DNA of 53,432 nt from an uncultured Clostridia bacterium (GTDB lineage Bacteria > Bacillota > Clostridia > Christensenellales > CAG-138). Below, one piece after another: positions 3,096 through 51,242 of this stretch. The notes under the pieces are model-generated. The model made no database searches and was not told the DNA's origin. It saw only the letters and a program-made list of their open reading frames with translations. Positions within the stretch are counted from its first letter, which is position 1, and each line of letters opens with the position of its first letter. Position numbers and translations under genes: made by a program. The DNA lies in the NCBI GenBank assembly GCA_937894955.1, contig CALAXO010000070.1, positions 1 through 53,432 of the forward strand, written 5' to 3'.

Positions 3096-3147
3096 AGAAT
3101 CGGGCAGGCGGTGAAAGCCGTATGTCCGATTCTTTTATTTTTATTTT
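3096..3147 (+). terminator. Rho-independent terminator
   Basis: Stem AGAATCGGGCA (3096-3106) / TGTCCGATTCT (3123-3133), then TTTTATTTTTATTTT. Confidence 0.6.
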
Positions 3148-3202
3148 GGATGAAAGACTAAAAAGCATTTAAAATATATTATTGATTGACGCGATATGAT
3201 AC

Positions 3203-3231
3203 TTGACGGATGTCAATATTTGCTGTATAGT
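3203..3231 (+). promoter_or_regulatory. Sigma-A type promoter (TTGACG, 17 bp, TATAGT), duplicate of the 2514 promoter
   Basis: TTGACG at 3203-3208 and TATAGT at 3226-3231. CTTGACGGATGT.AAT.TTT....GTATA.TATCA.ATGTGA.CACAAAAA is shared with 2513-2563. Confidence 0.6.
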
Positions 3232-3273
3232 ATCAGATGTGATCACAAAAAATAAATTTTAGAGGAGATTTTC

Positions 3274-3732
3274 ATGAAGAGAATCATATGTTTCGTTATG
3301 ATGGCAGCAATGCTGCTGTGTGTAGGATTCGGCACAAAGTCGAACGCCGCCGCAGAACCCGGCCAAGAGCCGAACTTCGAACTTCAGCCCGTAGCTCTCG
3401 ATGCTTCAGATCCGGATTATAATCCGTACGCTGTGTGCCGAGAAATCACCTTCACCCCTGTTGACGATCCGAACATTTCCGCCCGCGAACTCGGCATCAT
3501 GCGCATTCAGGAATCCGGCGGTTCCGATTTCCTTGACTGCTTTGACGATGAATTCCTTGAATTGATTTCAACCGCAACAAGTGTCATTGTCACTGAGGCA
3601 TATTTCCTTGAAGAGGGCGATTCCGAAGAAACGGAGCTTGTCGCTGTTTCTTATGAGGAATTCATGAATGCCGAACCCGACGACTCCGTCGGAGAGGACA
3701 TTCCCGTTATTGTTCCCGGCGATAACGGCTGA
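3274..3732 (+). CDS. Secreted acidic protein (hypothetical)
   Basis: GAGGAG RBS, N-terminal signal peptide (MKRIICFVMMAAMLLCVGFGTKSNAAAE), 152 aa, Asp/Glu-rich. Confidence 0.6.
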   Translation: MKRIICFVMMAAMLLCVGFGTKSNAAAEPGQEPNFELQPVALDASDPDYNPYAVCREITFTPVDDPNISARELGIMRIQESGGSDFLDCFDDEFLELISTATSVIVTEAYFLEEGDSEETELVAVSYEEFMNAEPDDSVGEDIPVIVPGDNG

Positions 3733-3771
3733 TACGTTACAGCGGAATGCAATATTAACCCGGTTGAACTT

Positions 3772-3827
3772 TCGGCACGGAGGCAGGCGCAATTAAAAAA
3801 GAGTTTGCTTCCGTGCCGATTTATTTT
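3772..3827 (+). terminator. Hairpin plus T-tract (probable terminator)
   Basis: Stem TCGGCACGGA (3772-3781) / TCCGTGCCGA (3810-3819) with a long loop, followed by TTTATTTT. Confidence 0.4.
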
Positions 3828-3905
3828 GAAAGATTCAGCGAAACAATTTACAAAACAACCCTCCGCAAAAAAGAAAGAAAGGAAGCTTTCGACACTGCGA
3901 AAGCG

Positions 3906-4809
3906 ATGATAACAAACATGAAAAACATGAAAAGGATTATTTCAGCGATTTTGATTTTGCTCCTTGCGGTTTCAATCTGCGCCTGCAGGGACTCTGCCGA
4001 AAAAAACGAAGACCCGATTGCAAAAAAGGTAAGCGAATACGCCGAGCTTATGAATAAGGACCTCTCCGAAAGCATTGAAACATTGCCGACGGGCTTGGAA
4101 TATGATGAAACAACAATTGAATGCTACAAAGCGGAGGGGCGCGACCTTGTTTATGTTAGGCCGTTCGATTCGTCTGTGGCTTCCATGTGGACGCAGGAGA
4201 TTTATGGTTATGCCCGGCGACAACATTCGCATGGAAGTGGCTTCCATGTGGACGCAGGAGATTTGGGAGGAATACGCTCGCACCGATGATCTGTACAACA
4301 ATACCCTGTTCAAGAACCTTACGGAAACCGTTGGGGACGACAGCGTAAGGCTGATTATCAGATTCATCGATAATGACGATAATGTGCTGTATGACCACAT
4401 AATTGACAAAAACTATAAATCCTCCGCCGGCACGATTACAATTATCGATGACACGGACGAAGCCGAATATGCGGTAAAAGCCGCCGCGAAATATTGCAGC
4501 GAGAATGCGGAGCGGTTGAATGCGGAATTAAGCATGTTTATGGAGGATGCAAAGTGGAACGGATGCCATGCCGAAGAGAGCGATATTGTGTTTGAATTCA
4601 AATACAACAAGGCCGTTGACAGTCAGGAGTTCGAAAGCAAATACAGTCAGGCCGATATCACAGAGGCACTTCAGCGATATGCGGACGAGATTGCATCCGA
4701 AACGGGAACACCGCTTGTGAGGCTTGTTTTCCGCTGCATTGACAGCGACGGAAACAACATTGCCGAGATTCATATCAAGGATCGAATGTTTGTTCATGAT
4801 GAGAATTAA
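3906..4809 (+). pseudogene. Lipoprotein gene split by a 61-bp insertion (frameshift)
   Basis: The N-terminal part (MITNMKNMKRIISAILILLLAVSICAC lipobox) is in frame 0 and stops at 4289. The rest is in frame +1 and runs to 4809. VASMWTQEI is encoded twice by the 28-bp repeat, and removing 61 bp gives one ORF. The exact start (3906, 3918 or 3927) is uncertain. Confidence 0.65.
4176..4264. repeat. Exact 28-bp direct repeat x2 flanking a unique 33-bp insert
   Basis: GTGGCTTCCATGTGGACGCAGGAGATTT occurs at 4176-4203 and 4237-4264. The insert ATGGTTATGCCCGGCGACAACATTCGCATGGAA is at 4204-4236. The flanking bases differ on both sides. Confidence 0.95.
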
Positions 4810-4859
4810 ACCGCAGACAGCGGACTTAAACTGAAAAAGGGCAATCAAGCATGAACTTT

Positions 4860-4903
4860 TCGGGCGGACGGCAAAAGCTGTTCGCCCGATTTGCTTGCTT
4901 TTG
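4860..4903 (+). terminator. Rho-independent terminator
   Basis: Stem TCGGGCG (4860-4866) / CGCCCGA (4883-4889), followed by TTTGCTTGCTTTT. Confidence 0.5.
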
Positions 4904-5575: not shown

Positions 5576-5947
5576 TCAATCGCTGTGTTCGGCGGCAAAG
5601 CGTTTTATTGCCTCAAAGGTTTCATCGGAAATAACATGCTCGATTTTGCAGGCATCCTCTGCGGCAATTCCGGCGGAAACACCGAGCTTTGTGAATACTT
5701 TTGTTAAAACGCGGTGACGTTCGAATGTTTTTTCGGCGACCGAACGCCCTTCATCCGTGAGATAAAGATGTCCGGAACCATCCATGATGATATAGCCGTT
5801 TTTCTTCAATATGCCGACGGCGCGGCTGACGCTGGGCTTCGAATAGCCCATTTCTTCCGCAACGTCAACGCTGCGAACCTTGTTCAACCTGCGGGAAAGC
5901 ACAAGAATGGTTTCAAGATACATTTCGCCGGATTCCTGCAAATGCAT
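5576..5947 (-). CDS. DtxR/MntR-family metal-dependent transcriptional repressor
   Basis: MHLQESGEMYLETILVL...VRSVDVAEEMGYSKPSVSRAVGILKKNGYI...LTDEGRSVAEKTFERHRVL is the typical DtxR N-terminal HTH plus dimerisation helix. GAAAGGGG RBS before the ATG at 5947. Confidence 0.85.
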   Translation of the reverse strand: MHLQESGEMYLETILVLSRRLNKVRSVDVAEEMGYSKPSVSRAVGILKKNGYIIMDGSGHLYLTDEGRSVAEKTFERHRVLTKVFTKLGVSAGIAAEDACKIEHVISDETFEAIKRFAAEHSD

Positions 5948-5987
5948 TCGATTCACCCCTTTCAAAGTTTTTTAATTCAGTTGAACC

Positions 5988-6578
5988 TTACATAACTGCG
6001 GTCAGAAGGTAGATGACATAGGCATCGATCCATTCGGAGGGATCGCGTGACAAGCTTGACGCATAGTCGGCATAGGTAACATCCTCATCGTTTGTGAGCA
6101 TATAGCCGGAGCTGAAAATCTGCGTTGAAGTGCCTCTTACGCGGTCAATGGCGATAAGATATTTGTATTCGTCGTCGAATGCCTCTTTTGTGCCGTCCTC
6201 GTTTGTCTGTTCGTAATGCGTGCGATAAACGCCGTCCTTGTATTCAATATCGACAATTACAAGCTCCGGATCACCGCCGGTGACAACTTTTTCATAGTAA
6301 GTTGCAACGCGCAGAAGTGCAGGGTTGCCTTTTTTTGTTGTTTTTGCAAAGTCGGTCATGACGGATGCGTTTTTGATTGTTCCTTGGCTTTGGTAAACAA
6401 CAAGGCAGCCGTCCTCCTCAGCCTGCTCGGGTGTGTAATCGGCAGGAATTTCGGAATAGGCGCAATAGTCGGTTTCGATCGTCTGCGGAGTTTTTTTGCA
6501 GGCGCAAAGGCTCAGCGCAGCAGACACGAAGCAAAGTGCAAGTGCAAATAATATAACGTTGCGGAAGGGTTTTTTCAT
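5988..6578 (-). CDS. Lipoprotein (hypothetical)
   Basis: Signal peptide with lipobox LSLCAC; 196 aa; no recognisable catalytic motif. Confidence 0.65.
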   Translation of the reverse strand: MKKPFRNVILFALALCFVSAALSLCACKKTPQTIETDYCAYSEIPADYTPEQAEEDGCLVVYQSQGTIKNASVMTDFAKTTKKGNPALLRVATYYEKVVTGGDPELVIVDIEYKDGVYRTHYEQTNEDGTKEAFDDEYKYLIAIDRVRGTSTQIFSSGYMLTNDEDVTYADYASSLSRDPSEWIDAYVIYLLTAVM

Positions 6579-6623
6579 TGTTTTTCTCCTTTTGCGGGTT
6601 AAGTTTAAACGGTGTCGGGCGAT

Positions 6624-7163
6624 TCAGCGGCGGGTTATGATAACGTTGCGGAGCCTGTCATCAAAAACGCGTACGCAAAGCGTGAAAATAAGTTCATATG
6701 CGATAAAGAAAATCTCAATCGCAGGAATAATAATGTACAACGGATAATTCGGCAGCTGAGCGATTATGTCAAGACTGAACAGTTTGCCTGCGCCGAATAT
6801 CACAAGTGCAGCAAGGCCGTTGCAAAGAATAAGCTTTGCGGCAAAGGCAACAAGCTTGTCGCGGATAACGCTGTCGATGCCGAGTTTAATCATTCCGTAA
6901 CAGCCGAAAAACAGGATATACACCGCAAAATACAACTTGTTCGGAATGAGAAAAAAGGATATCGCACCCGTTGCCGCATAGCTCAGCAGGGCGTAGACAA
7001 ACCCGCCCCGCTCCCTGAGGGGTATCCAAGGCATAAGCGATGTCAAAAAACACAGCGCGAGCTTTGCCGTCGGAATGACGGATGCCGCATAAAGAAACAC
7101 AACGCTGAGCGCAGTGCTCATGGCGGAAAGAGTCAGTTTTGTTGTTGCAGAAAGTTTTTTCAT
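6624..7163 (-). CDS. Polytopic membrane protein (hypothetical)
   Basis: 179 aa with about 5 hydrophobic helices. No clear RBS. Confidence 0.5.
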   Translation of the reverse strand: MKKLSATTKLTLSAMSTALSVVFLYAASVIPTAKLALCFLTSLMPWIPLRERGGFVYALLSYAATGAISFFLIPNKLYFAVYILFFGCYGMIKLGIDSVIRDKLVAFAAKLILCNGLAALVIFGAGKLFSLDIIAQLPNYPLYIIIPAIEIFFIAYELIFTLCVRVFDDRLRNVIITRR

Positions 7164-7211
7164 CTTTTTAAAGCAATTGCAAAGCCCGAAAGCGGCCGAA
7201 AAAGCAGAAAA

Positions 7212-7889
7212 TCAGCAGCAGCGAATCAAATCTCCGCCCATGCATTCGCAGCAGGAATCCGCACAAAGCAAAGTCGAACAGCAGTTGCATGCAGTGTTCA
7301 TGTCTGCTCCCGTATTGTCGTTGTCATAGGTGTGGTAGCTCCGCGTGCTGCGTGCGTTAAGGGAATCCCTTGCGCGGCGGTACTCTGCGCTGCGCGGTTC
7401 CATTGAAACGGCTATGTCAAGATAATTGCGGGCGGATGAGTAATCGCCGACGCGGAAACAGACAATGCCGTAAAGATAATGCCATTCCGCATTGTGCAGC
7501 GGTATGCCGTCCAGCATTGCCTGTGCTTCATACAGAGAACCTGTGTTTATGCATTGCCGCACACGCGCGAATTCAGCCGAAAAATTGCCGGAATAACCGT
7601 TGCTGTAATTTCCGGAATAACCGCCGGAGGAAGTGCCGGAGCTGCTGCCCGAATAGCCTTCGAATCCGCTGCCGGAATAAGTGTTTTGGGAAGCGGCGCC
7701 GTTTTTGCGCATGTTGTTTATTGTGTCATACGCTTCGTTGACCTGCTTCAGCTTTTCGTTTGCAAGGTCCTGCAGGTCGCTGTCCCGATAGCGATCGGGA
7801 TGATATTTTTTGACTAATTTAATGTAGGCGGAACGGATCTGCTCATCGGTGGCGGTTTCCGAAACGCCGAGCACCTCATATGGGTTCAC
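7212..7889 (-). CDS. J-domain (DnaJ-like) protein with Gly/Ser/Tyr-rich linker, TPR-like segment and Cys-rich tail
   Basis: GTG start. NPYEVLGVSETATDEQIRSAYIKLVKKYHPDR carries the HPD motif. The C-terminal tail is CNCCSTLLCADSCCECMGGDLIRCC. Confidence 0.85.
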   Translation of the reverse strand: MNPYEVLGVSETATDEQIRSAYIKLVKKYHPDRYRDSDLQDLANEKLKQVNEAYDTINNMRKNGAASQNTYSGSGFEGYSGSSSGTSSGGYSGNYSNGYSGNFSAEFARVRQCINTGSLYEAQAMLDGIPLHNAEWHYLYGIVCFRVGDYSSARNYLDIAVSMEPRSAEYRRARDSLNARSTRSYHTYDNDNTGADMNTACNCCSTLLCADSCCECMGGDLIRCC

Positions 7890-7924
7890 GAGTTCGTCCT
7901 TTCTTAATATACAGACAGAAAATT

Positions 7925-8863
7925 TCAGGCTTTGTACGCTGCCGGAATGCCGTTGTTCGGCAGCGGCCGTTTTTCCTTTGCAAAAACGGCATCGGAAACG
8001 GCAAAAAGCCCCTGGAACAGAATGTTGTCGAGAATCGTCCTGTCGCGGCCGGTGCTCAACAGATTATATGCCGAAATTGCAGAATTTATCGAGATATTAA
8101 TAATAAATTCTGCATCATCGCGGGTGCAGCCGCAGATATTGAACGGGTTGAAAAGCGAGTGCTTTTTATCACTTTCGCGATCGTCCCATGCATCGCAAAG
8201 GTAGATGAACCTTCCGATAAAAAAACCTGTTTCCTTCAGCGCGGGTATTTCCTTTTGCGGAACGGGTGCCGATGCAAGCACATCGCGCAGCATTTCGCCG
8301 AAAATATTTGCGGGAAGATCCGGCGAACGCAGCGTTTGAGAACGCAGTTCCGCCGCCGAATCGTTTTTCGCAGCTTTGCGGCGGGGAAAAGCCCGGCTGC
8401 CGCGATAGAGTGCTTCAACGGAGGCAAGCTCCCGCATACTTTTTTTTACCGCTGCATAAACTTCCGGCCGACGCAAACGCGCTTTTTTGAATGCGCGGAG
8501 CAGGGGGAGTTTTGCGGCAATTCGCAGCGGCTTTCCGTCCGCAATATCGTCCGAAAGCTTGAATTCGGATAAAATAACGCAGACATCGGCTGCAAAATCG
8601 AGTGCGGCGGAAGGCGAACCGAGCATTGCCCGCTTTTTGCCGAAGGGCTTGAACGGGCAGTGCAGCAAATCTTCAGGCGGATCTTCTCCGCTGACGGAGG
8701 CAGCGAGCAGCGCAAGGAAGGTGCAGTCAAAGCTCAGCAGCGCACGGGCTGCTGTTCCGTACCGCGCCCCGAGGCGGCGGCACAACCCGCAGTACCATGC
8801 ATCATAGCGTGATTTTTCGCGAACCCGAAGCTCCGGAATGTTTGGCTTTATATATCCGAACAA
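7925..8863 (-). CDS. Hypothetical protein of the family I recall as DUF5685 (usual neighbour of the clostridial J-domain protein)
   Basis: The ORF is open from 8941, but a TTG at 8863 gives MFGYIKPNIPELRVRE...YDAWYCGLCRRLGARYG, the N-terminus typical of this family. The start choice is uncertain. Confidence 0.55.
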   Translation of the reverse strand: MFGYIKPNIPELRVREKSRYDAWYCGLCRRLGARYGTAARALLSFDCTFLALLAASVSGEDPPEDLLHCPFKPFGKKRAMLGSPSAALDFAADVCVILSEFKLSDDIADGKPLRIAAKLPLLRAFKKARLRRPEVYAAVKKSMRELASVEALYRGSRAFPRRKAAKNDSAAELRSQTLRSPDLPANIFGEMLRDVLASAPVPQKEIPALKETGFFIGRFIYLCDAWDDRESDKKHSLFNPFNICGCTRDDAEFIINISINSAISAYNLLSTGRDRTILDNILFQGLFAVSDAVFAKEKRPLPNNGIPAAYKA

Positions 8864-9047
8864 AATTTTTTCCGCCGAAAGTTGATTTTGCGGGCAAATC
8901 GCAGACGCGGCAGATTCCGCAAACGGGTTTGCCCATATCATATTTTATACCAATACGGACTTTTTTTCAACCGTCCCGAAGCAGGACAATTAAAGAAAAA
9001 CGCGGAAAATTATGAAATTAATGCGGCAATCGGTTCCGCAGCCCGTT

Positions 9048-10646
9048 TTAAAACACGCTCAATACGCACATATACATGACCGTATAACCGGCATATGCAA
9101 TCGCCGAGACTGTAAAAATTGCAGCGGTTCTTTCTTCTGACTTGCAGCTCATTGCAATTGCAGCGATAACCGCGGGCACAACGCTCAAATAGCGCATTGC
9201 GGAAAGCAGCCATGTGCAGCCCATAGTAAGCGCGAAATAGGCGAGAAAATGCAGCGTGTATGCGGCAGGAAGCTTGCGGGCGCGGCGAAGAATCAGCAGC
9301 GGAGTCAGCACAATCAGTGCGACCGTCGGCAGGAAGAGCACAAACACGGATGTGATGTTCGTTCCGGTAAACGCTCCCGCACTCAATACAGCCTTCAAAT
9401 CACCGATTGCCCTTTGATACATGTAGCGTGCCGTATCAAAGAAAAGGCCGAGACTCTGACTCCAGTTGGATTTTTGATAAACGGAGAACATAAACCAATC
9501 GCCCGCGACGACCTTGTTTATGTAAAGATAGGCAAGCGTGCCGAAGGTCGATATAACAAGCGAAAGCGCGATTTCCGCAATCGTTGACCCGATTTTTTTC
9601 CCGCTGCGGGCTCTGCGGACGCAGTGCCCGATGCCTTCAAGCACAAGAGGAACGGCAAGCAGCACGCCCGGCGAACGTGTGAATCCGGCGCATGCTGCGG
9701 CTATGCCCGCCGCAAGGTATTTCTTTTTTTGCAGCGCATAGAAGCAAAGTGCGGTGAAAAGCATGAACAGCGGCTCTGTCATTCCCGAATTCAGAAAAAT
9801 CGAACCGGGCAGCATCAGCCAGATGAAGGGTGCAAGGCGAGCTTTTTTTTCACCGAGCAGAGGACGAAGCGTGAGATACAGAATGCCTGCCGTTGAGCAG
9901 GAGGCGAGCGTGTTGATTATTTGTGCGGAAACAAAGCTGCTTTGGGTCAACAGGTTGAATCCGCGCATAAGCAGCGGCAGCATCGGAAAAAACACGATGA
10001 GCACGCTGTCTTTGCCTGTTGCAGCATACCAGTTTTCGGCTATGCTGCAGTAATGCGGGGCGTCCGTGTTGACTTTTGTCCACGCAGCTTGCCAAAGGCT
10101 GAGCAAACTGCCCTGAAAATTACGATTAAGACAGTAAAAAACGATCATTCCGAATATTGTCAGTGCCGCACGAAGAATGAATGCGGCAAGAACGATTTTC
10201 AGGAAGGTTTTTCCGTTTGCCTTTTCGGCGCCGGACGGTGCAAGCTGAGCATCGTCCCCGCTCAAAACTTTGATGATCTGAGGAACGGCCGCAATAAGCA
10301 CCGCGGTAAAAACGGCAAGCGACACTGCCGAAACCGCAAGGCTGTCAATACTGAACTTTGCGCTGTTTTTGGCACAGTACACAGCGAACAGCACGGAAAA
10401 GACAATTATGATAAATAAGCGAACAAAAAGCACGGCGCGCTTTTTGGGACTCATTCGCCCGATTTTATTGAAAATGCCGGTTTTTTTCGGCTTTGCTTCT
10501 TCAACAGACGGTTGAAACGGTTCGCCTGCCGGGTCTTGAGACATATCGCTCTGCGGCAGCGCATTTGCTGTATCGGCTGCTGAGTAACCAAACACATTTT
10601 CGTCGGAGCTTTGAATATTATTTGTTTCGCCGCTTCTGCTTTCCAT
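9048..10646 (-). CDS. Polytopic membrane protein, GT-C-type glycosyltransferase-like (PMT/ArnT/PIG-V-like)
   Basis: GGGAGGAG RBS before the ATG at 10646. About 90-aa soluble N-terminus followed by more than 10 TM helices. The functional call is from overall architecture only. Confidence 0.45.
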   Translation of the reverse strand: MESRSGETNNIQSSDENVFGYSAADTANALPQSDMSQDPAGEPFQPSVEEAKPKKTGIFNKIGRMSPKKRAVLFVRLFIIIVFSVLFAVYCAKNSAKFSIDSLAVSAVSLAVFTAVLIAAVPQIIKVLSGDDAQLAPSGAEKANGKTFLKIVLAAFILRAALTIFGMIVFYCLNRNFQGSLLSLWQAAWTKVNTDAPHYCSIAENWYAATGKDSVLIVFFPMLPLLMRGFNLLTQSSFVSAQIINTLASCSTAGILYLTLRPLLGEKKARLAPFIWLMLPGSIFLNSGMTEPLFMLFTALCFYALQKKKYLAAGIAAACAGFTRSPGVLLAVPLVLEGIGHCVRRARSGKKIGSTIAEIALSLVISTFGTLAYLYINKVVAGDWFMFSVYQKSNWSQSLGLFFDTARYMYQRAIGDLKAVLSAGAFTGTNITSVFVLFLPTVALIVLTPLLILRRARKLPAAYTLHFLAYFALTMGCTWLLSAMRYLSVVPAVIAAIAMSCKSEERTAAIFTVSAIAYAGYTVMYMCVLSVF

Positions 10647-12051: not shown

Positions 12052-12468
12052 GGTATTTATCCTCCATGTGGAAAATTTGATTATATACGCACCGTTCGGC
12101 AGTAAATTCCGCGTATAAACTGCGTATATATTCATTATAACAAACTTTCCCGCAAAAGGGAAGAGGAAAAATGAATCGGAAGTGTTTTTTTCAGAAAAAC
12201 TTTGACGGTTTTTTTCGGAAACGCTGCCGGATTGCATAAGATGCACGCTTTAATTCAGCGGAGACACAAAGAAGCCGGAATGCAAGCACGCCGACTTCTT
12301 ATATGTTATAAGAGCGAAAAAACAAACTTCCGCCAAGCCCATAAGATGTCTTTATCGAGCACTTTCACAAGCAGAACCCCTCGACTGTGGTTATTCATCT
12401 TTTTTGCGAAGGGTTATGATCCCTGTTCCTGCGGTAATAACCGCAATACTGAGACCGATAAGGCCGAC

Positions 12469-12564
12469 TGTGCCGGTTCCGGGTACGGGAGTGGGTTCCG
12501 GCACATCGGCGAAGAAATTCTCTCGTACGCTTGTGCCGGTTCCGGGCACGGGAGTGGGTTCCGG
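12469..12564. repeat. In-frame 63-bp-period coding repeat (PEPTPVPGTGT linker)
   Basis: TGTGCCGGTTCCGGG(T/C)ACGGGAGTGGGTTCCGG occurs at 12469-12501 and 12532-12564. Confidence 0.9.
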
Positions 12565-13418
12565 AGTGTCTGTGGGAGGCACGGGTGTGGGTTCCGTCGG
12601 CTGATCGGGATCCGAAACTTCAAGATCGTTCGGCAGGAATATTGCCATATAATCACCGCCGTTGTAAAGCCCTCCGCAAAACTCGGTTTCCCCGGTATGA
12701 TGATCGAGAATATAGAGCCTGTTGGACAGGGAGTTGCACCGGTAAATGCACTGGCTGCAGTGGTCGAATTTCATTGTGTTTGCGAAACAGGTCGGAATGC
12801 CGGTATCGGCGATGATTGTGCATCTGCCTGTTTCGAGGTTGACGCTTGCCGATCTGCCTGTATCCGTCCGGTCATAGGAACCGGTATCGCTTGCAGGAGT
12901 CGTGTAGGCATTTCCTTCGGAATCGATTGTGAAACCCCATGCATTTTTGCCGAGGGCATTCATTTCGGCAATGGTTGTAACAGAACCGTCGCGGCGGTCC
13001 GCTTCGATAAGCCAAAAGTCGCTGCAGTAATGAGTCGCCATTGCGAACATGCGCTGCCGTTCGTAATCATAAGCCATGTCATAAACGAAGCAGCCGCCTG
13101 CTTCCTCGCCGGCAGGGAAGGTGAATTTTTCAAGCGGAGCATAATAATCCATAATGCCGAACCAACGCACAATTTCCTGACCGTTGGAAAAAAACAGGAA
13201 GACACAGTCCTGCTGTGACATAACTCGATAGCTGAATTCGAGAACCTGCCCTGCTTGCGCAAAAACGGTGGTGGAGACGTTTGATTTTGAGTTGTCCGAG
13301 TCGCGGTTTGATGATTTTGCTGCATCGATGTCAATGGACCGGTCGAGTGCATTGTCGGAATCTCCGTTAAAGAAAGTAAGCTTTCCTTCTTCAATGTTCA
13401 GTACTTCGTCAAGAGTCT

Positions 13419-13507
13419 GCGCATTCCGCGCGTCGGCGGGAAGCCCTCCAACAAACGGGAATTTCACAATACAGTTTAAGCGCATTCCGCGCGTCGGCGG
13501 GAAGCCC
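13419..13507. repeat. Exact 28-bp direct repeat x2 flanking a unique 33-bp insert
   Basis: GCGCATTCCGCGCGTCGGCGGGAAGCCC occurs at 13419-13446 and 13480-13507. The insert TCCAACAAACGGGAATTTCACAATACAGTTTAA is at 13447-13479. The flanking bases differ on both sides. Confidence 0.95.
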
Positions 13508-14019
13508 GTTTGTGTCCGTTAAAAACGGTGCAGCTCCTGCAAGCGGCGCAGCAGCGACCGAAAGCAGTGCCACGGCAGTTACGATCAGTGCAAAAAACTT
13601 TTTCATTTTTTTCCGTATTGTTTAATTTTTGCCCGTCAGCGGGCTGTGTTCCTGCGGCTGCGGCTCTTGTGCTGCCGTTCACCGCCGCATTCGGAACAGA
13701 AGCCCTTTCCCGCGCCGACCGGCAAAACGAAAAATATAAATTGCGGAGCAGGGGCTCAAAGAAAACTGCGCACCGGAGCAGGACGACGGCAGTTTTCGGC
13801 CGGAATAAAATACCTGCGGGCAAAACGCCGTTAAATACAATAAATATGCGGCGAACGCCGCTTTCTTCAAAATCCGGCTGAAAAATCCCGTTCGGCAGTT
13901 GAAAGAAACCGCGCAGGGTATTATAATATGGTATGAGTATGCGGAGCGGTACGGAGTTTTTGCGAACTTCGGATGATTTGCCTATGCGCCGCATCCGACA
14001 CGAAAGGAGAAAACGGAAA

Positions 14020-19899: not shown

Positions 19900-22764
19900 A
19901 TGAAATGCATAAACTGTGGTTCGGAAGATGTCATTTATCGAAAATTTCATCACATATGGGAATGTCAGGTTTGCGGCGAATCATTTGATTCCGATGAACG
20001 TGAAAAAATGACGGAGGAAATTAATGTTTTCTTCAGCTATGCGCATGACGATGAGAGTTTCGAAAACGGTGCAGTCGTTGTTGACAGGCTGAAACAGCTC
20101 ATTGAGGAAAAATCAGGCGGAAAAATCAAAATCTGGCTGGATACCTATTCCATTCCGAGGAATAAGGATTGGCGCGAACTCATAACAGGCGGCATTGTCG
20201 AAAGCGATCGTTTTGTGGGTTTCATGTCTCGAAAGGCGTTGCGCGACCCCGGTGTTTGCAGAGATGAACTCGGAATTGCCGTCGGCAGCCGCTGCGGGAT
20301 CATAAGCTGCGTTTTGCTTGAAGGCGAACGCACACTGAACCCTCCCGCAGAGTTTACCGAGCGGCAGTGGATCGACCTTTCGGATTGGAAAAAGAAGCGG
20401 GATGAAGGCGAAGCGGAATTCGAACGCTTTCTGAACGATGCTGCGGACGAATTGATTGGCATTTTGAAAGATCCGGAAACGCTGCGCTTCAATCACGAAG
20501 TGAAAAAACTGAAGGAATCCCTCGGAATTTCCGCCGTTGACGAAATGACCCGCATTGACGAATTGCTGAAGTTCAAAATGACGGGGCGCGGTTGGCTTGA
20601 GAGCAAAATCAACACTTGGCTGAACGACAAAAACGGTTCACGCGTTATGACCCTTTATGCCGACCCGGGCGCGGGCAAATCACTTTTTTCGGCACATTTC
20701 CAATTTGCAAACCCGAACGTCATCGCTGCACTTGCCTGCGACAGCCGAAGCGAGGAATACAGCCAAACGGACAAAATCACCGATCGCCTTGCCTACCTTA
20801 TCGCCCTTAGACTGCCGGACTATCGCCGGCAGCTGATGTATATTTTGACAGATAAAAGCACATTGACCAAAACGGGACACGACAGGTTTAACACCCTTAT
20901 CGCAACCCCGCTCAGCAGGGTTATAGACGGTGAACGCTCTGCAAAGCTCATCATCATTGACGGATTGGACGAAGCAAAGAGCGGTGCGCTCGCCGGGTTC
21001 ATCCGCAGCTATCATGACAAGTTGAAACCTTATATCCGCATACTTATCACCGCAAGACCCGAACGCATGCTCAGGCGGCAGCTGGCGCCTTCCGCCGAAT
21101 TCAGCTGCACGGAGCTGAATCTTGACGATTATGCCGAAATGAACGATGCCGATATCCGTCAATACTATGAAGAAAACCTCGAAGACCTGCTGAAGGACCG
21201 TCCCGGCCGCGATATTTTCATGAACCGCCTTGTTGAAGCAAGCAGCGGGATCTTCTACTATGCCTTCACGATCCTGCCGCAGCTGCGCGAGTCGCTCGAA
21301 AACGGGGAGCCGCTCGAAGGCATGACCTTCCCGAAGGGGCTCAACGCCTTGCTGCTCAAAACCTTCCTGCGAAAATTCGGGGAACCGGATGCTTCCGGCA
21401 GTGTCGAAAAATACAATGCGTTCGTGCGCGAGCCGCTTTCAATGGTCGCCGCCTCCCCCTATGCCCTCCCGCTCAAAACGCTGCAAAAGATGCAGGGCTG
21501 GACGAACGCCCGGCTGGAGGATTTTCTGCGCCCGCTGGAGACGATGCTCGACCTCAGCGGCGGCTTCATCCGCCTTTTCCACAAATCCTTCACGGATTGG
21601 CTGAACGACGGCGAGGCTTCCGCTGCGTTCTATGCGCCGCAGGAGGATGGCATACGGAGCCTTGCCGCCGCCTGCTTCAAAGCCTTTGAACAGGGCGCGG
21701 ACGAAATGGATACATATGAGCTTGCAAATGCTTCACGCCTGCTGCGCAGTGCGGGAATGAAGAAGGAATACGAACAGCTCACGGATTCTTCGGAATACAC
21801 CTCCGCACTGAAAAAACTCGCAAAAGCCTGTGCGGACGACCGGCAGCATGAAAGAGCGGCGGAGCTCTGTCTTGAATATGCGCGAATATTTAAGGAGAAA
21901 TGCGAAAAAAGCGGTGATCCGGAGCAGGCGCACGAAGCCGTTTGGGGCAATATTTATGCCTGTGATGCGCTGGGGGACATGCTTGATTATTCTGCGGCGG
22001 AGGTCGCTGCAAATGCAGCGCTGAAAATTGCGGAAGAGTTTGCGGAAAAGTACCCGGATGACCCGCAAATGCAGCGCGGCCTGAGCATTTCGTATAATAA
22101 ACTCGGCGATATTGCGAAAGCCTTGAACGATTATAATGCGGCGGAAGGGTATTATGCAAAGGCGCTTGCAATCAGCAAAAGGCTTGCGGAAAAGTACCCG
22201 GATGACCCGCAAATGCAGCGCGACCTGAGCAATTCGTATAACAGACTCGGCGATATTGCGGAAGCACGGAATGATTATAACGCTGCGGAAGTGTATTATT
22301 CAAAGGATCTTGAAATCAGGGAAAGGCTTGCGGAAAACTTTCCGGGAGTTCCGATGCTGAAGGACGATCTTGCCGTTTCTCTTTTCAAGTGCGGGACATG
22401 CAGCGCGGACGGAAAGCTTTCGCCCGAACAAAAAGCGATGCTGCGCAGCGCTGCCGCGATTTGGGAGGAGCTTTACAAACAAACGGGATATGTATTGTAT
22501 GCGGAAAGAAGAGAGCTTGCTCAAAACCGATTAAATCAATGCAGTGAAGAAGGAGGAGAGAATACGGAACAGAAGAAACCCGGATTTTTTGCACGGCTGC
22601 GTGAGGAAATCAGAGCGTATCGCAAGATGAGAAGGCTGATCAGATTGCTTAAAAGCACAGATAAAGCCGTCAAAGAAATGGAAAAAACGCGGCGTGAGAC
22701 GGAGAGAATCCTTGCAAAATCGGATGAGTTGAAGCCGTGCGGCGAAACGGACGACGAAGAATAA
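19900..22764 (+). CDS. Zinc-ribbon - TIR - STAND (NACHT/NB-ARC-like P-loop NTPase) - TPR protein, antiphage-type sensor/effector architecture
   Basis: CINCGS...CQVCGE zinc ribbon. TIR block VFFSYAHDD...WLDTYSIPRNKDW...VCRDELGIAV. Walker A LYADPGAGKS and Walker B KLIIIDGLDEA. C-terminal 48-aa TPR units (AEKYPDDPQMQR.LS.SYN.LGDIA...YNAAE.YY). Confidence 0.85.
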   Translation: MKCINCGSEDVIYRKFHHIWECQVCGESFDSDEREKMTEEINVFFSYAHDDESFENGAVVVDRLKQLIEEKSGGKIKIWLDTYSIPRNKDWRELITGGIVESDRFVGFMSRKALRDPGVCRDELGIAVGSRCGIISCVLLEGERTLNPPAEFTERQWIDLSDWKKKRDEGEAEFERFLNDAADELIGILKDPETLRFNHEVKKLKESLGISAVDEMTRIDELLKFKMTGRGWLESKINTWLNDKNGSRVMTLYADPGAGKSLFSAHFQFANPNVIAALACDSRSEEYSQTDKITDRLAYLIALRLPDYRRQLMYILTDKSTLTKTGHDRFNTLIATPLSRVIDGERSAKLIIIDGLDEAKSGALAGFIRSYHDKLKPYIRILITARPERMLRRQLAPSAEFSCTELNLDDYAEMNDADIRQYYEENLEDLLKDRPGRDIFMNRLVEASSGIFYYAFTILPQLRESLENGEPLEGMTFPKGLNALLLKTFLRKFGEPDASGSVEKYNAFVREPLSMVAASPYALPLKTLQKMQGWTNARLEDFLRPLETMLDLSGGFIRLFHKSFTDWLNDGEASAAFYAPQEDGIRSLAAACFKAFEQGADEMDTYELANASRLLRSAGMKKEYEQLTDSSEYTSALKKLAKACADDRQHERAAELCLEYARIFKEKCEKSGDPEQAHEAVWGNIYACDALGDMLDYSAAEVAANAALKIAEEFAEKYPDDPQMQRGLSISYNKLGDIAKALNDYNAAEGYYAKALAISKRLAEKYPDDPQMQRDLSNSYNRLGDIAEARNDYNAAEVYYSKDLEIRERLAENFPGVPMLKDDLAVSLFKCGTCSADGKLSPEQKAMLRSAAAIWEELYKQTGYVLYAERRELAQNRLNQCSEEGGENTEQKKPGFFARLREEIRAYRKMRRLIRLLKSTDKAVKEMEKTRRETERILAKSDELKPCGETDDEE

Positions 22765-45441: not shown

Positions 45442-46551
45442 TTATTTTTCGTCCTTTGAATCGTCACACTCGGAGAACACAGCCCTGAGCCTGTCAAGAA
45501 TATCGATTACATATTCTTTGTTGAGCGTGTAATAGGTTTTGGCGGTGCGCAGATCGCATTCCACAAGGTTTGCCGCAACAAGGCGCGCCATATGATGGGA
45601 AATGGTGGTGGGGTGCAGCGCGGTCTTTTCGGAAAGCTCCTGTCCGTAGGCGGGGCTTTCGCGAAGCAGGTTGATAATGTCCAAACGGCTCGGCTCGGAA
45701 AGGGCTTTGAACAGCATTGCGAGTTCCTCGGGGGACGAGATGATGTCACGAACGCTTGAAACAAGGTCATAACCGATGCCCATGAGAACCATGCCGTTGT
45801 CCTTTCCCGTATTGTCCTGATACTGCTTGATGAAAGCAGCAATATGGTCATACATAAAGATGGAGCAGTAAGGAGTCATTTCGATATTATCGGGAAGTCC
45901 CATTCCGTAGCAGTCATTAATTTTTTTGAGGACGCCGCTGCCTTCGGGATAGCGTTTGGAAAATGCGGAGCAGATTGCCGCAACGTTTGTGCGCTCACGG
46001 CGCATTGCATTGAGGAATCCGTCAACAAGCAGGGATACGCGTTCGGAATAGCTCTTGTATTTGAACAGGAGCTTCATTACGCCGAGTCGGGACTGTTCAT
46101 CAAGGCCGGTGTTTTCAAGCCGCTCATAGAAGGCATCGGAAGTGATCTCATCGGTCACGGTTGCGGTGCCGGGGGATTCGAGAACGCTCAGAATGTCAAC
46201 CATGATGTCTCCATCGGTTTTCGAATAAATATATTCAGTGAAATTATCCGGATCAACACCGTCGCGAATCGCAGGGAAGACCATCATGTATAGAATGCTG
46301 TTGCTGCAGGCGAAGGGTGTGGGACTGCTGCAAACAGGAGTCAACAGCTGACTGAGCTCACGCTTACCCACACGAACAAGGTAGTCAAGGCGATCCTGAA
46401 GGTCTGCAACCGGAGAGAGAAGCCTTAAGAATTCGTTGGTTTTTGAAGGAAATCTTGTGCACAATCTGTCGAGTTCAATGCGAACAAGACGGCCTTCGGC
46501 CCTGCGGTGGAAGTATTGAAGAGCTTCAAAAAGAGGATTGATGTTTATCAT
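45442..46551 (-). CDS. ArsR/SmtB-family HTH regulator with a ~270-aa N-terminal extension
   Basis: The C-terminal LSEPSRLDIINLLRESPAYGQELSEKTALHPTTISHHMARLVAANLV is an ArsR wHTH. The start is ATG 46551 or TTG 46563. Confidence 0.7.
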   Translation of the reverse strand: MININPLFEALQYFHRRAEGRLVRIELDRLCTRFPSKTNEFLRLLSPVADLQDRLDYLVRVGKRELSQLLTPVCSSPTPFACSNSILYMMVFPAIRDGVDPDNFTEYIYSKTDGDIMVDILSVLESPGTATVTDEITSDAFYERLENTGLDEQSRLGVMKLLFKYKSYSERVSLLVDGFLNAMRRERTNVAAICSAFSKRYPEGSGVLKKINDCYGMGLPDNIEMTPYCSIFMYDHIAAFIKQYQDNTGKDNGMVLMGIGYDLVSSVRDIISSPEELAMLFKALSEPSRLDIINLLRESPAYGQELSEKTALHPTTISHHMARLVAANLVECDLRTAKTYYTLNKEYVIDILDRLRAVFSECDDSKDEK

Positions 46552-46635
46552 ACGGGAGACCAACCTTTCGTATTTTTGTTTTATACTCTTTTATTTTAAT
46601 ACATTTAAAAAATATGTCAAGTACAGAATTTCCTG

Positions 46636-46665
46636 TTGACAAGGTATTGTTGGGCATTGTACAAT
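46636..46665 (+). promoter_or_regulatory. Sigma-A promoter (TTGACA, 18 bp, TACAAT) for the S8 protease
   Basis: TTGACA at 46636-46641 and TACAAT at 46660-46665. Confidence 0.5.
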
Positions 46666-46712
46666 GCATAGGATACCAATCCTACAACTGCGGTTGGAGA
46701 AGGATGATAAAC

Positions 46713-49700
46713 ATGAAACTCAAACGTTTGGCGGCACTTGTGCTCGCGGTTATGATGACATTGACCGCGGCTTCCGTGACGGGGCTTTCGAAGCTTGCGG
46801 CGGAAGGAACACAAAAACCCGAAAAGTCCGTTGTTGATGCGACGGGTGCAACATGGTACCACGCCGATGCAGGCGAGGAACTGCGTTTTGATGACGACTC
46901 AAGCTATTGCTTTGAAAGCGAAAGCTGGATTATGCGTCAGAAGAGCGGAAGCACGATTGACGAAGCTGTTTTCGACGGCATCACGCCCGACAATGTTCGG
47001 ACATTGACCAATGAAAACGGCGAGACCTACACCGTTTCAATGTATTCCCAGGCAACGGTTGTTGCAGAACTCAACCGCATGCTCGGCAAGGAAACGAAAA
47101 AACCCGAACGAACCCTTGTTGAAAGGTACAAAATTGATGATGAAGGCATGATTGACGTCATTATCAAGCTTTCCGGCGATGCCGTGCTCGAAAACGGCGG
47201 CGCGGTTCTCGGCGAAGGACTTACCAAACAGCAGTCCGCCGCACGCGAGAAGCTTGCAGCGGAACACGAAATCATTAAAAAGCGCATTGAATGTGCCGCT
47301 TCGGCAATCTCTTTTGAATATGATTTCACCCTGCTCTGCAACGGCTTTGCGGCAAGCGTACCTTTCAACGAGGTTTCGCGCATTGCGGCGGTTGCGGGCG
47401 TTGAAAGCGTTGAATACATGCCCGTGTTTGAAATTCCCACGGAAAGCTATGAGATCGTTCGCCCCGACGACACAAAGATGACGATTGCGAACGATGTTAT
47501 TGAATCCGGCTATGCATGGGATCTCGGCATTGACGGCAGCGGCATGGTTATTGCAATTATCGATACAGGCATCGATACCGATAACGAGTGCTTTGCTCCC
47601 GGACTTGAAACAGTCAAACTGACTCAGGAGGATATCAGCCGCACAATTGCCGAAAATCCGGATATGAACATGCTTGCGCTCCGTCCCGGAACGACTGCGG
47701 AACAGGTTTATATCAACGATAAGATTCCGTTCGCATTTGACTATGCGGATAAGGACTGCAATGTTAACCACGGCGGACAGGCTTCCGCACACGGCACGCA
47801 TGTTGCCGGCATCGCAGCGGGGCAGGCGGTCGAAAGCGCGGGCACAAGCTTCGGCCTGACATCTCTCGGTGTTGCACCCAAGGCACAGATCCTGCCGCTC
47901 AAGGTGTTCAGCGACCGCGATGCTTCCGCAACTCTCGGCAGCGTTGCGGCCGCAATGGAGGATGCGCTCGTTCTCGGTGCGGATGCGATAAACCTCAGCC
48001 TCGGCGCTGTCGGGGGCCCCGTGTATTACGAGGGCTATACGGAAATTTTTGATGCGGCACTTGCCAACGGCATCAATGTTGTTGCTTCCGCGGGCAACTC
48101 CGCTTCTTCCACTTACCACAGCCTTTGGGAAGCGGATCTCGGCCTTACGGATAATCCCGATATCGGCATGGTCGGTATGCCCGGAAGCTTCAATTCCGTT
48201 CTGACGGTTGCAAGTCTTAATAACCCCGAATACTTCGTTGCGATTCAGACTCAGGATGCGCTGCTGTTCGACGATGCATATCCCGAATACGGCGGTTCAT
48301 GGAAATCCCGCTACGACGACAAGGCGGATTATGAGTACAAAGTTGCAACCCGCATCGGCGGACACAGCTATGAGTACAGCATTTTCCATACTGCCATCGA
48401 CAATGCGGATCTTTCCGATGTTTCCGGCAAGCTTCTGTTTGTTGATTATAACTCCGAACTGACGATCGATGAACATGCGGCATTTGCACGCGAAGCGGGT
48501 GCGGCTGCACTGTTTATCTTTGACTCTTCAAGAAAAACGACCTTTGTTGACACGACGAGAGAGGATTGGACCTATCCCGTTGCAGCATACAAATATGATT
48601 CTCTGACCAAAGCGCTTGAACCGTCTCACCCGGCGACGATTCATATTAACCCCTATTGGGATATTGACGATCAGGGCGGTTACATGTCCTCATTCTCAAG
48701 CTGGGGCACAACCGGCGGACTGACCATCAAGCCCGAGATAACGGCTGTCGGCGGCAATGTTTTCTCCGCATATAACGGCAGCGGCGCATACGCACTTTCA
48801 AGCGGCACGTCAATGTCCGCTCCGATGACGGCGGGCAGCGCATTGCTTGTTCGTCAGTATCTGATGAACAATTTCGATATTCCTGCGGCGGAACTTCCGG
48901 AAGTTGTGAACAATCTGCTCATGAGCGCCGCAGCTCCGGTGCTCAATCCCGACGGACTTACCTATTCCCCCCGTTATCAGGGCGCGGGCTTTGAGAACAT
49001 CCGTGCGGCAATGACCGCCGGCGCCTACATCACCACCGAATGCGGCAGGGCAAAGCTTGAACTCGGCGATGACCCGCAGAAAACAGGTGTTTACAACCTT
49101 AATTTCACCGTTGTGAACATGACCGATTCGGACAAGACCTATACTGTTGATGCTTCTGTTCAGACGGAAAGTGCGGAGACGGGCCGGATCAATGCGGACG
49201 GCACCCGCCGTTATCTCATGACTCAGACTCCGCACATTCTGAATTCCGAAATTGCGGGCGACGGCATGATCACGGTTCCCGCAGGCGGTTCAACCGAAGT
49301 TTCCGTAACGATTACGCTCACCGAAGCGGATATCGCTTATATCGAAAATTACTTCCCGAACGGCATATATGTTGAAGGTTTCGTGACTCTCACCGCAGGT
49401 GAGGAGAACGGAGTTGATCTTTCCGCTCCGTTCCTTGCATTCTACGGTGACTGGCTTGCATTGCCCGCAATCGAGCAGAGCAGCTACTATGATTTCACCG
49501 AAATTGAAACAGGTGAATGCGATGCAACCCATGTTGTTAACGGCGTATATACCTATGATGCAAATTACGATGAATATATCGGTCTCGGAACAAGCATGGC
49601 TTGGCCCAACAACAGCGTTTACTCCACGGAAGAACTCGGCACGATGCGCTATGTTGCAAACCGCAACGCGATCTCTCCCAACGGGGACAGTATCCGTGAC

Positions 49701-51242
49701 GCAATCGATGCGATTGTAATCGGTTTGAGTCGCAACGTTGAAAATTTCTGTTACAGTGTTGTGGATGCGGAAACCGGTGTTGAATACTACCGCAAGGATC
49801 TCGGTTTTGTACCGAAGACGTACTACAACGATAATGCGGGTCAGGCACTTTACGTCGGAGCCTATGATAACGAGGAGTTTGACTGGGATTATACCGACCT
49901 TGAAGGCAACCCCCTGCCCAACAACACAAAGCTTACTGTTGCATTCTGTGCGGAATTGGCTTATAATGGCAGGGAACGCACCGAAAAGTGGGAGATGCCG
50001 CTCACGATCGACACCGAAAGCCCCATCAAGAATGTTTCCATGGTCAGCTATGAATGGGAATATGAAGAATGGAGCGATGAGGAAGACGACTATGTCGGCA
50101 CGGGAGAGTACTACCACGTTCCCACTATCGTCATTGACTACAGCGAGAATCAGTATATGGACTGGAATTGCGGCAGGTCTATGAGCGTCGGCGGCGGCAG
50201 CAGCAGCAAAGTGTTCCACAATGCCGTTGAACCCGGCACCGTGCGCGGAACGGCAAAGCTCGGCCTCGGTCCCGATGACTTGAGCGACCTCAACAGTTTC
50301 CTCTTCCTTGAATGCATGATAAGCGACTATGCGGGCAACGGCCTGTTTATTCGCATCGAGCGCGATGATCGCCCCGAAATCTACAACTCCGGCGAACTTT
50401 CCGACAGCGTTGTAAATCTCCGCCCCGGCGAAACTTACACCGTCAGCGCATATTCCGATATCTGGGATTTGTTCACGGATTTCGACTTTGCATGGAGCGT
50501 TGAGGATGAGTCCGTTGCATCGGTTACCCAGAACGAGGGTGACATTTTCTCCGCAACGATAACCGCAAACGAAGTCGGCAGCACCACGCTGAAACTTACG
50601 AACGGTTTCCTTAAAGAGATGACCTGCACGATTAACGTTGTTGCCGAAAGCTACGATATCACCGCCTCCGCAGGGATCGGCGGAACTATTACACCATACG
50701 GCACAACCACTGTTGATTCCCGCAGTTCTGCATCGTATACGATTACTCCGAATGAGGGTTGGCATGTTGCGGATATTATTGTTGACGGCGAATCAGTCGG
50801 TGCCGCAAACGAATACACCTTTGACTGCGTGATTGCAAATCACACGATCGAGGCCGTGTTCGCAAGCGATAACTACTTTAATGTTTATTTCGTTGACTGG
50901 GACGGCACAACGATCAGTGTTCAGACAGTCGGCTACGGCATGGATGCGGAAGCGCCTGCCGACCCCGTACGTGAAGGCTATGATTTCATCGGCTGGAGCG
51001 GATGCTTCACCGGAATCACGGCAAACACCGTCCTTGTTGCGCAATATGAACCCGCAAGCGGAATCCTTGCGGGTGATATTGACGGCGACGGCATTGTGAC
51101 CGCCGCAGATGCTCTGCTCGTTATGCGTTATTGCAGCGACCTTGCGGAGCTGACCCCCGAACAGCTTGAGGCTGCCGACTTTAACGGCAGCGGCGTTGTT
51201 GAACTTATCGACGCGCTGCTTATCCTCCGCGCTGTTGTCTGA
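46713..51242 (+). CDS. Cell-envelope-type S8 subtilisin-like serine protease with PA domain, Listeria-Bacteroides/InlB-B-type repeats and C-terminal type I dockerin
   Basis: Signal peptide MKLKRLAALVLAVMMTLTAASV. Triad contexts VIAIIDTGID, HGTHVAGIAAG and SGTSMSAPMTAG. PA-like LLFVDYNSE...AGAAALFIFD. YFVDWDGTTISVQTVGYGMDAEAPADPVREGYDFIGWSG. Dockerin GDIDGDGIVTAADALLVMRY...ADFNGSGVVELIDALLILR. Confidence 0.9.
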   Translation: MKLKRLAALVLAVMMTLTAASVTGLSKLAAEGTQKPEKSVVDATGATWYHADAGEELRFDDDSSYCFESESWIMRQKSGSTIDEAVFDGITPDNVRTLTNENGETYTVSMYSQATVVAELNRMLGKETKKPERTLVERYKIDDEGMIDVIIKLSGDAVLENGGAVLGEGLTKQQSAAREKLAAEHEIIKKRIECAASAISFEYDFTLLCNGFAASVPFNEVSRIAAVAGVESVEYMPVFEIPTESYEIVRPDDTKMTIANDVIESGYAWDLGIDGSGMVIAIIDTGIDTDNECFAPGLETVKLTQEDISRTIAENPDMNMLALRPGTTAEQVYINDKIPFAFDYADKDCNVNHGGQASAHGTHVAGIAAGQAVESAGTSFGLTSLGVAPKAQILPLKVFSDRDASATLGSVAAAMEDALVLGADAINLSLGAVGGPVYYEGYTEIFDAALANGINVVASAGNSASSTYHSLWEADLGLTDNPDIGMVGMPGSFNSVLTVASLNNPEYFVAIQTQDALLFDDAYPEYGGSWKSRYDDKADYEYKVATRIGGHSYEYSIFHTAIDNADLSDVSGKLLFVDYNSELTIDEHAAFAREAGAAALFIFDSSRKTTFVDTTREDWTYPVAAYKYDSLTKALEPSHPATIHINPYWDIDDQGGYMSSFSSWGTTGGLTIKPEITAVGGNVFSAYNGSGAYALSSGTSMSAPMTAGSALLVRQYLMNNFDIPAAELPEVVNNLLMSAAAPVLNPDGLTYSPRYQGAGFENIRAAMTAGAYITTECGRAKLELGDDPQKTGVYNLNFTVVNMTDSDKTYTVDASVQTESAETGRINADGTRRYLMTQTPHILNSEIAGDGMITVPAGGSTEVSVTITLTEADIAYIENYFPNGIYVEGFVTLTAGEENGVDLSAPFLAFYGDWLALPAIEQSSYYDFTEIETGECDATHVVNGVYTYDANYDEYIGLGTSMAWPNNSVYSTEELGTMRYVANRNAISPNGDSIRDAIDAIVIGLSRNVENFCYSVVDAETGVEYYRKDLGFVPKTYYNDNAGQALYVGAYDNEEFDWDYTDLEGNPLPNNTKLTVAFCAELAYNGRERTEKWEMPLTIDTESPIKNVSMVSYEWEYEEWSDEEDDYVGTGEYYHVPTIVIDYSENQYMDWNCGRSMSVGGGSSSKVFHNAVEPGTVRGTAKLGLGPDDLSDLNSFLFLECMISDYAGNGLFIRIERDDRPEIYNSGELSDSVVNLRPGETYTVSAYSDIWDLFTDFDFAWSVEDESVASVTQNEGDIFSATITANEVGSTTLKLTNGFLKEMTCTINVVAESYDITASAGIGGTITPYGTTTVDSRSSASYTITPNEGWHVADIIVDGESVGAANEYTFDCVIANHTIEAVFASDNYFNVYFVDWDGTTISVQTVGYGMDAEAPADPVREGYDFIGWSGCFTGITANTVLVAQYEPASGILAGDIDGDGIVTAADALLVMRYCSDLAELTPEQLEAADFNGSGVVELIDALLILRAVV

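Follow-up and report, generated by a model that had tools for sequence, protein, structure and literature searches.

The window analysed here, a stretch of 53,432 bp with 48.5 % GC, is a segment of a Clostridia chromosome that carries genes for oxaloacetate decarboxylase, citrate lyase, fumarase and a ZIP transporter. An exact-protein look-up with its longest CitE ORF and its fumarase beta subunit returned no record. Two genes for exported proteins in this segment are each split by a short unit of the same build, in which two identical copies of a 28-bp sequence enclose a 33-bp insert. We refer to the units as locus 1 (4176-4264) and locus 2 (13419-13507), and to their inserts as spacer 1 and spacer 2. 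An earlier note on this DNA, which described the locus-2 unit and named locus 1 as its companion, was correct in coordinates, letters and 28/33/28 geometry. The features of the two loci are as follows.

3813..4809, + strand: interrupted DUF4854 signal-peptide gene of locus 1 (probable lipoprotein)
4172..4175, + strand: GTCT flank of locus 1, from the in-register comparison of the pre-integration sites
4176..4203, + strand: target-site duplication copy A of locus 1, 28 bp; single copy in nine contigs that are ~95 % identical
4204..4236, + strand: spacer 1, 33 bp; exact fragment of an EF-Tu gene, with GAA before it and ATC after it in the donor
4237..4264, + strand: target-site duplication copy B of locus 1, 28 bp
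12391..13606, - strand: interrupted surface-protein gene of locus 2, with a signal peptide and a C-terminal anchor
13415..13418, + strand: GTCT flank of locus 2, directly upstream of the duplicated segment; candidate leader-side recognition element
13419..13446, + strand: target-site duplication copy A of locus 2; leader-proximal in the proposed orientation, ordinary coding sequence
13447..13479, + strand: spacer 2, 33 bp, 33 % GC; frame +2 reads (N)PTNGNFTIQF
13480..13507, + strand: target-site duplication copy B of locus 2, 28 bp, identical to copy A

The locus-2 28-mer is GCGCATTCCGCGCGTCGGCGGGAAGCCC and the 33-mer between its copies is TCCAACAAACGGGAATTTCACAATACAGTTTAA, which occurs once in the window in a search that tolerated up to three mismatches. 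At locus 1 the 28-mer is GTGGCTTCCATGTGGACGCAGGAGATTT and the 33-mer ATGGTTATGCCCGGCGACAACATTCGCATGGAA. Because the bases beside the two copies differ on either side, the locus-2 repeat is exactly 28 bp long, and the same sizes hold at locus 1, where a duplication of exactly 28 bp with differing flanks surrounds an insert of exactly 33 bp. No further perfect direct repeats (at least 18 nt, 40-100 nt apart) were found in the whole window. When imperfect copies, matching at 23 or more of 28 positions, were allowed, the window added nothing except coding Pro/Thr repeats, and a shuffled window returned zero pairs. No older or degenerate events of the same kind were seen, either in the window or among 25 related loci.

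Beyond the two loci, a run of about 25 kb of same-strand genes for large unusual proteins (19900-45267) looks like a conflict or defence island. Its products include a TIR + STAND NTPase + TPR protein (954 aa), a VWA-like protein (885 aa), a Tubulin_2 tubulin-like protein (1159 aa), a transglutaminase-like protein (1492 aa), a PHP-domain protein, and a double AAA+ protein with an M41 peptidase domain (1156 aa) in which PADLOC matches only IetA/DolB-type ATPase domains. No known PADLOC system was matched in the island. A 144-nt tandem repeat (22040-22337; 2.1 copies, 88 % identity) lies in the TPR region of the TIR-STAND gene. At the contig end stands a gene for a large serine recombinase (Resolvase/Recombinase/DUF4368; 51720-53246), which suggests that the island next to it is an integrated element and would explain the assembly break there.

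Empty sites and broken genes

The locus-2 unit recurs base for base in four other samples (ERZ26858319, ERZ26858461, ERZ27300200 and SRR29834387). Three of these contigs, built by different assemblers, are 99.66-100 % identical to the window, so that the insertion is kept across strains differing by 0.34 %. The locus-1 unit is likewise present in a second ERZ27300200 contig, at 99.99 % identity.

More distant relatives carry the corresponding empty sites. Clostridium sp. CAG:138, which is 92-96 % identical in the region, has a single locus-2 28-mer with five substitutions, and its alignment to the window leaves a gap of exactly 61 bp opposite the spacer and the second copy. Three long contigs from another relative (L023-L025) also hold one locus-2 28-mer and the same 61-bp gap. 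Homologs of the locus-2 protein (552-628 aa, more than 30 in the search) are uninterrupted across the site in every one inspected. For locus 1, nine contigs of ~95 % identity give alignment blocks that overlap by exactly 28 nt on the window, and these contigs therefore carry one 28-mer and no spacer there. It follows from the empty sites that both insertions are derived and confined to the window's lineage.

Two other features of these genomes were seen in passing. The L023-L025 contigs have about 4.4 kb of extra sequence between citE and the locus-2 gene (5630-9755), missing from the window, with genes for a Big_2/dockerin protein of 881-896 aa and an HTH_5 protein of 362 aa; the window has genes for an HTH_5 protein and for an S8 peptidase with a dockerin far off, at 45442-51242. 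Downstream of tuf, Clostridium sp. CAG:138 has a tandem repeat with a 29-nt period (CGCTTATGCAATGCAACGCTCATA...; L001 5706-5867), which runs head-to-tail and is no CRISPR array.

Both interrupted genes are mended on paper by removing 61 bp. The earlier note had stated that each locus-2 copy encodes GLPADARNA on the minus strand, that the two locus-2 ORFs fuse once 61 bp is taken out, and that two exported-protein genes had been hit; all three points are borne out. The ORFs at 13606-13409 and 13485-12391 join into one frame of 385 codons (384 aa plus stop), whose product has a signal peptide and a C-terminal anchor. With the insertion in place, the frame is shifted after ~43 codons, and the residual ORF of 364 aa restarts at an ATG within the repeat and lacks the signal peptide. 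Database entries for this 364-aa product come from contigs up to 53,432 bp in length, and the window is therefore an entire deposited contig. At locus 1 the same operation restores an intact gene for a DUF4854 signal-peptide protein, and this gene is intact, at 309-312 aa, in the ~95 % identical relatives.

Each gene has a further history of change. In the window's lineage the locus-2 gene has moreover lost ~200 aa by an in-frame deletion (window 12391-13485 compared with L006 8966-10741), which takes out a Big_2/Big-like domain found in all the 552-628-aa homologs. The segment that holds the locus-1 gene and its paralog (window 3131-4860) is missing in Clostridium sp. CAG:138 and in L023-L025 and is uninterrupted in the ~95 % identical relatives, so that these DUF4854 paralogs form an accessory tandem cluster. 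Given the deletion at locus 2, and at locus 1 a segment that some relatives do without and that sits beside paralogs, both genes look dispensable. This apparent dispensability could explain how the insertions were tolerated without invoking selection.

Origin of the inserts and character of the target sites

Spacer 1 is identical over all 33 nt to a stretch of tuf, the gene for EF-Tu, in Clostridium sp. CAG:138 and in a second Clostridia MAG. It reads MVMPGDNIRME in frame, with a host-like coding score, and it comes from a tuf gene of the clade, probably the cell's own. In tuf, GAA directly precedes the sequence of spacer 1.

Spacer 2 is AT-rich and has no host-like coding frame. Nothing above chance was returned by exact searches for it in genome contigs and viral contigs, by searches for its 26-nt core in metagenome contigs, or by BLAST against phages and plasmids. 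With its wobble positions masked, spacer 2 matched nothing in viral contigs in any of three codon phases, nor in genome contigs in one phase. The other phase, searched in genome contigs and metagenomes, yielded matches to genes of the type IX secretion system (T9SS) in frame +2. A Polaribacter gene agrees with spacer 2 at 28/33 positions, all five differences falling at codon third positions, and a second metagenomic gene agrees at 25/33. Both matches cover the first residues of the T9SS type A C-terminal sorting domain (PF18962 / TIGR04183). One more match (L027, the same as L030) was rejected as a chance match spanning a start codon. To our knowledge the T9SS is restricted to Bacteroidota and their relatives, and for this reason the donor of spacer 2, judged from homologs at 25-28/33, was most likely a Bacteroidota gene for a protein with a T9SS sorting domain.

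The two donors have a flanking dinucleotide in common. In every T9SS homolog the match is preceded by AA, the first two bases of a conserved AAT (Asn) codon; the T of this codon is base 1 of spacer 2. AA stands directly 5′ of both 33-mers on the + strand, as read in the donor gene for spacer 1 and as deduced from the homologs for spacer 2; the third PAM-like base is A or T, not G. The chance of finding AA at both flanks, with either orientation allowed and the flank of spacer 2 taken from its homologs, is ~0.008. In the type I-E system of E. coli, the integrated unit is 33 bp long and opens with the final base of the AAG PAM, and its PAM-side end abuts the leader-proximal repeat copy (PMC10011333). 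As the first spacer base is the last PAM base, AA is therefore the dinucleotide directly 5′ of the integrated unit in E. coli I-E.

The sites themselves are also alike. When the two pre-integration sites are compared on the same strand and in register, they agree in GTCT upstream and in 13 of the 28 positions within the duplicated segment, giving the pattern GTCT followed directly by G.G..TTCC..G.G...GC.GGA. About 1.6e-4 of random pairs of sites in the window reach such a match, a post hoc figure for two sites only. This alignment outscores the one offered in the earlier note, which had matched G(T)GGCTTCC on opposite strands and 1 nt out of register.

The common positions resemble the E. coli I-E repeat. 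The K-12 repeat, GAGTTCCCCGCGCCAGCGGGGATAAACC, was taken from NC_000913.3, where the array period of 61 bp was confirmed. Of the 13 positions common to both sites, 11 agree with it (G..TTCC..G.G...GC.GG; P=0.002 from composition-preserving shuffles, taken post hoc as the best of 14 orientation/offset configurations), the repeat compared being that of E. coli, from which the host's own may differ. The locus-2 28-mer alone agrees at 16/28 (P=0.02), and the similarity of the locus-1 28-mer alone is not significant. These values lend weight to the suggestion, made before from the locus-2 28-mer, that it is enough like an I-E repeat to be mistaken for one by an integrase. The best alignment is to the + strand, with a 2-nt shift relative to the E. 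coli cut sites; this strand suits both the PAM orientation and a leader side at the conserved flank. An alignment in exact register falls on the opposite strand and reaches 9/13; the PAM orientation would then be wrong. Both events would accordingly be oriented along the + strand, with the leader side at the GTCT flank.

In type I-E systems, only two inverted-repeat motifs of the repeat are essential (Goren et al., PMC5039180). They anchor rulers 16 and 8 bp from the second cut, which produce a 28-bp duplication whatever the downstream sequence (PMC5039180). A degenerate look-alike within a gene would therefore be duplicated to exactly 28 bp.

Each spacer also contains a short sequence found in its own target. 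Spacer 1 ends in CATGGAA, which is exactly complementary, in reverse, to a TTCCATG of the downstream repeat copy and forms with it a 7-bp hairpin (window 4230-4248), and spacer 2 (13455-13462) holds CGGGAA, which equals positions 19-24 of the locus-2 28-mer. In both cases a copy of the target's GGAA arm is involved (joint chance ~0.02, post hoc), which could be coincidence or a sequence preference of the integrase.

The surroundings of the sites are not those of a CRISPR locus. No cas genes and no CRISPR array were found within the 53,432-bp window. Leader-like and IHF-like motifs, which the earlier note had thought worth looking for, were seen at neither site: there is no IHF consensus site (up to one mismatch) within 100 nt of either and no AT-rich leader near them, the flanks having 45-51 % GC. 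IHF is not expected in most Firmicutes (PMC9456107), so that the IHF criterion may not apply here. An Rfam CRISPR-DR scan of both loci gave no match; the scan is insensitive, and is uninformative here because a genuine E. coli repeat, with just 14.5 bits, fails too. A bona fide CRISPR array was rejected as a description of the units, each of which has two copies per locus, 28-mers that differ between the loci, and a position in coding sequence without leader or cas genes.

Probable off-target integration and its alternatives

We consider it very probable that, in an ancestor of this lineage, a type I-E-like Cas1-Cas2 integrase produced both units by off-target (non-array) integration. This reading follows from the anatomy of the units, their empty sites, the captured DNA that makes up the inserts, the I-E-like motif of the targets, and the AA flank. 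Direct observation covers the anatomy and the empty sites, the source of spacer 1, the likeness between the two sites and their freedom from artefact; the enzyme, the donor of spacer 2 and the orientation are deduced. The earlier note had proposed as much, namely that a CRISPR integrase inserted a 33-bp spacer and duplicated a repeat-like 28 bp. Its proposal gains from the 61-bp empty sites, the independent assemblies and the tuf spacer, and further from the unrelatedness of the two 33-mers, the AA flank and the similarity of the sites to the I-E repeat. Other CRISPR types that are common in Clostridia do not fit the 28/33 geometry: type I-B has repeats and spacers of ~30/36, I-C of ~32/34, II-A of 36/30, and I-F of 28/32 with a CC PAM.

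The integrase would have captured 33-bp prespacers with AA directly 5′, one from the clade's tuf gene, probably the cell's own, and the other probably from a Bacteroidota gene for a T9SS-sorted protein. It would then have docked on ordinary coding DNA that resembles the I-E repeat in the pattern given above. Staggered cuts 28 bp apart, their spacing set by the repeat-measuring rulers, would have been joined to the spacer ends, and gap repair would then have doubled the 28 bp. Each event would have added 61 bp, shifted the frame, and inactivated a dispensable gene for an exported protein. That I-E Cas1-Cas2 can integrate off target in vivo is established, according to the accounts of Nivala et al. 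2018 in PMC7054753, PMC11788318 and PMC9456107.

The same integration mechanism could also give rise to functional, selected mini-CRISPR arrays, and the units could be read as nascent neo-CRISPR loci making guide RNAs and not as accidental mutations. Out-of-array integration has been proposed as a route of array birth (PMC6698737; bioRxiv 10.1101/148544), the locus-2 event has been kept across the strains 0.34 % apart, and the locus-2 28-mer can form a hairpin of -12 kcal/mol. However, the locus-1 28-mer hardly folds, and shuffled sequence folds no worse than either 28-mer. The units have stayed at a single spacer each, their 'repeats' are unlike each other and are coding and single-copy in relatives, and both a leader and a nearby cas gene are absent. 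A guide made from spacer 1 would target tuf beside an AA flank and would be lethal if interference were active. A functional spacer-1 guide should hence be autoimmune, which argues that the units are unprocessed or that interference is inactive. We regard functional arrays as very unlikely.

A direct duplication around an insert is the generic signature of transposition, and a small non-autonomous transposable element, or another integrase such as a casposase-like one, might have placed a 33-bp cargo within a 28-bp target-site duplication. A common element as the source of both inserts had been raised in the earlier note as an outcome that would count against a CRISPR integrase. The inserts are instead unrelated, with 10/33 and 7/33 identities, and neither has terminal inverted repeats (3-4/10 terminal matches). 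One of them is a fragment of a housekeeping gene, and no extra copies of either 33-mer were found in the window or in any searched collection. Known transposons make target duplications of 2-14 bp, and casposons, which carry genes, of ~14-15 bp, as against the 28 bp seen here. This origin is highly improbable.

Filler DNA from template switching or break repair, with 33 bp copied from elsewhere and the adjacent sequence duplicated, would suit the cellular origin of spacer 1 and the 7-nt complementarity between its end and the downstream repeat copy. Yet random repair predicts neither equal 28/33 sizes at two loci nor a common flanking motif nor a common AA donor flank, and spacer 2 apparently comes from another phylum, so that we give this explanation only the slimmest of chances. 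Sequencing or assembly artefact, which had also been named as a reason for doubt, can be practically discounted, given that the structures are identical in the window and in the contigs of the four independent metagenome samples listed above, which were made by different assemblers.

If off-target integration by an I-E-like integrase is accepted, the machinery of CRISPR adaptation can mutate the genes of wild gut bacteria by insertion, and the specificity of the integrase can be read from two natural pseudo-repeat sites. Spacer 1 matches an essential gene of the clade beside a PAM-like flank, and one may ask how the cell avoids autoimmunity; spacer 2 hints at a Clostridia cell sampling Bacteroidota DNA. 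One may go further and suppose that off-target Cas1-Cas2 activity is a recurrent natural mutagen in gut Clostridia, that it comes in bursts (the two events lie 9 kb apart) and samples other phyla as well as the cell's own essential genes, and that the surface-protein knock-outs were selected, through loss of phage receptors or antigens, or that the units are one-spacer nascent arrays. This wider scenario is speculative, and we think it rather unlikely. A local hotspot, which the earlier note put forward beside selection, may also lie behind the nearness of the two events.

Comparison with known systems

Casposon and transposon insertions share with the present units the staggered cleavage and gap repair that lead to a direct target duplication. 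They differ in having their own genes, conserved ends, and duplications of at most 15 bp, in place of the 33-bp unrelated captured cargo and the 28-bp duplication found here.

Canonical I-E adaptation, as in the CRISPR-I array of E. coli K-12, is much closer. It has the same 28-bp duplication, 33-bp unit and 61-bp period (PMC5039180, PMC10011333), AA directly 5′ of the unit (for spacer 2, as deduced from its homologs), and inverted-repeat motifs (TTCC...GGA) in the duplicated segment. Unlike canonical I-E, the sites described here have a coding 'repeat' with no leader, array or nearby cas genes, a third PAM base other than G, and a motif register that is shifted by 2 nt. Ectopic acquisition by the II-A system of Streptococcus thermophilus (PMC7999890) likewise places a spacer away from the leader-proximal repeat. 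Its targets are genuine repeats inside an array (PMC7999890), whereas those in the Clostridia lineage are protein-coding genes.

The nearest parallel is the off-target activity of the E. coli I-E integrase described by Nivala, Shipman & Church in 2018. As far as the accounts of that study go, it too found spacer-sized inserts between duplicated, repeat-length stretches of non-CRISPR chromosomal DNA, with repeat-like targets, the 28/33 geometry, and possible self-derived spacers. In those accounts the E. coli events came from an over-expressed integrase and fed oligonucleotides (PMC7054753, PMC11788318), whereas the Clostridia events are natural. The latter are also fixed in a gut lineage, break genes, can be set against empty-site alleles in relatives, and have no IHF-like site nearby.

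For natural out-of-array integration, bioRxiv 10.1101/148544 speaks only of 'circumstantial' evidence, from two other species, and no later reports of natural off-target integration were found in the searchable literature. The mechanism is already known, and the present pair is an unusually well-documented natural case of it. Combined here are alleles from before and after insertion, one exact and one deduced donor, a consistent PAM-like flank, and a recognition motif common to both sites.
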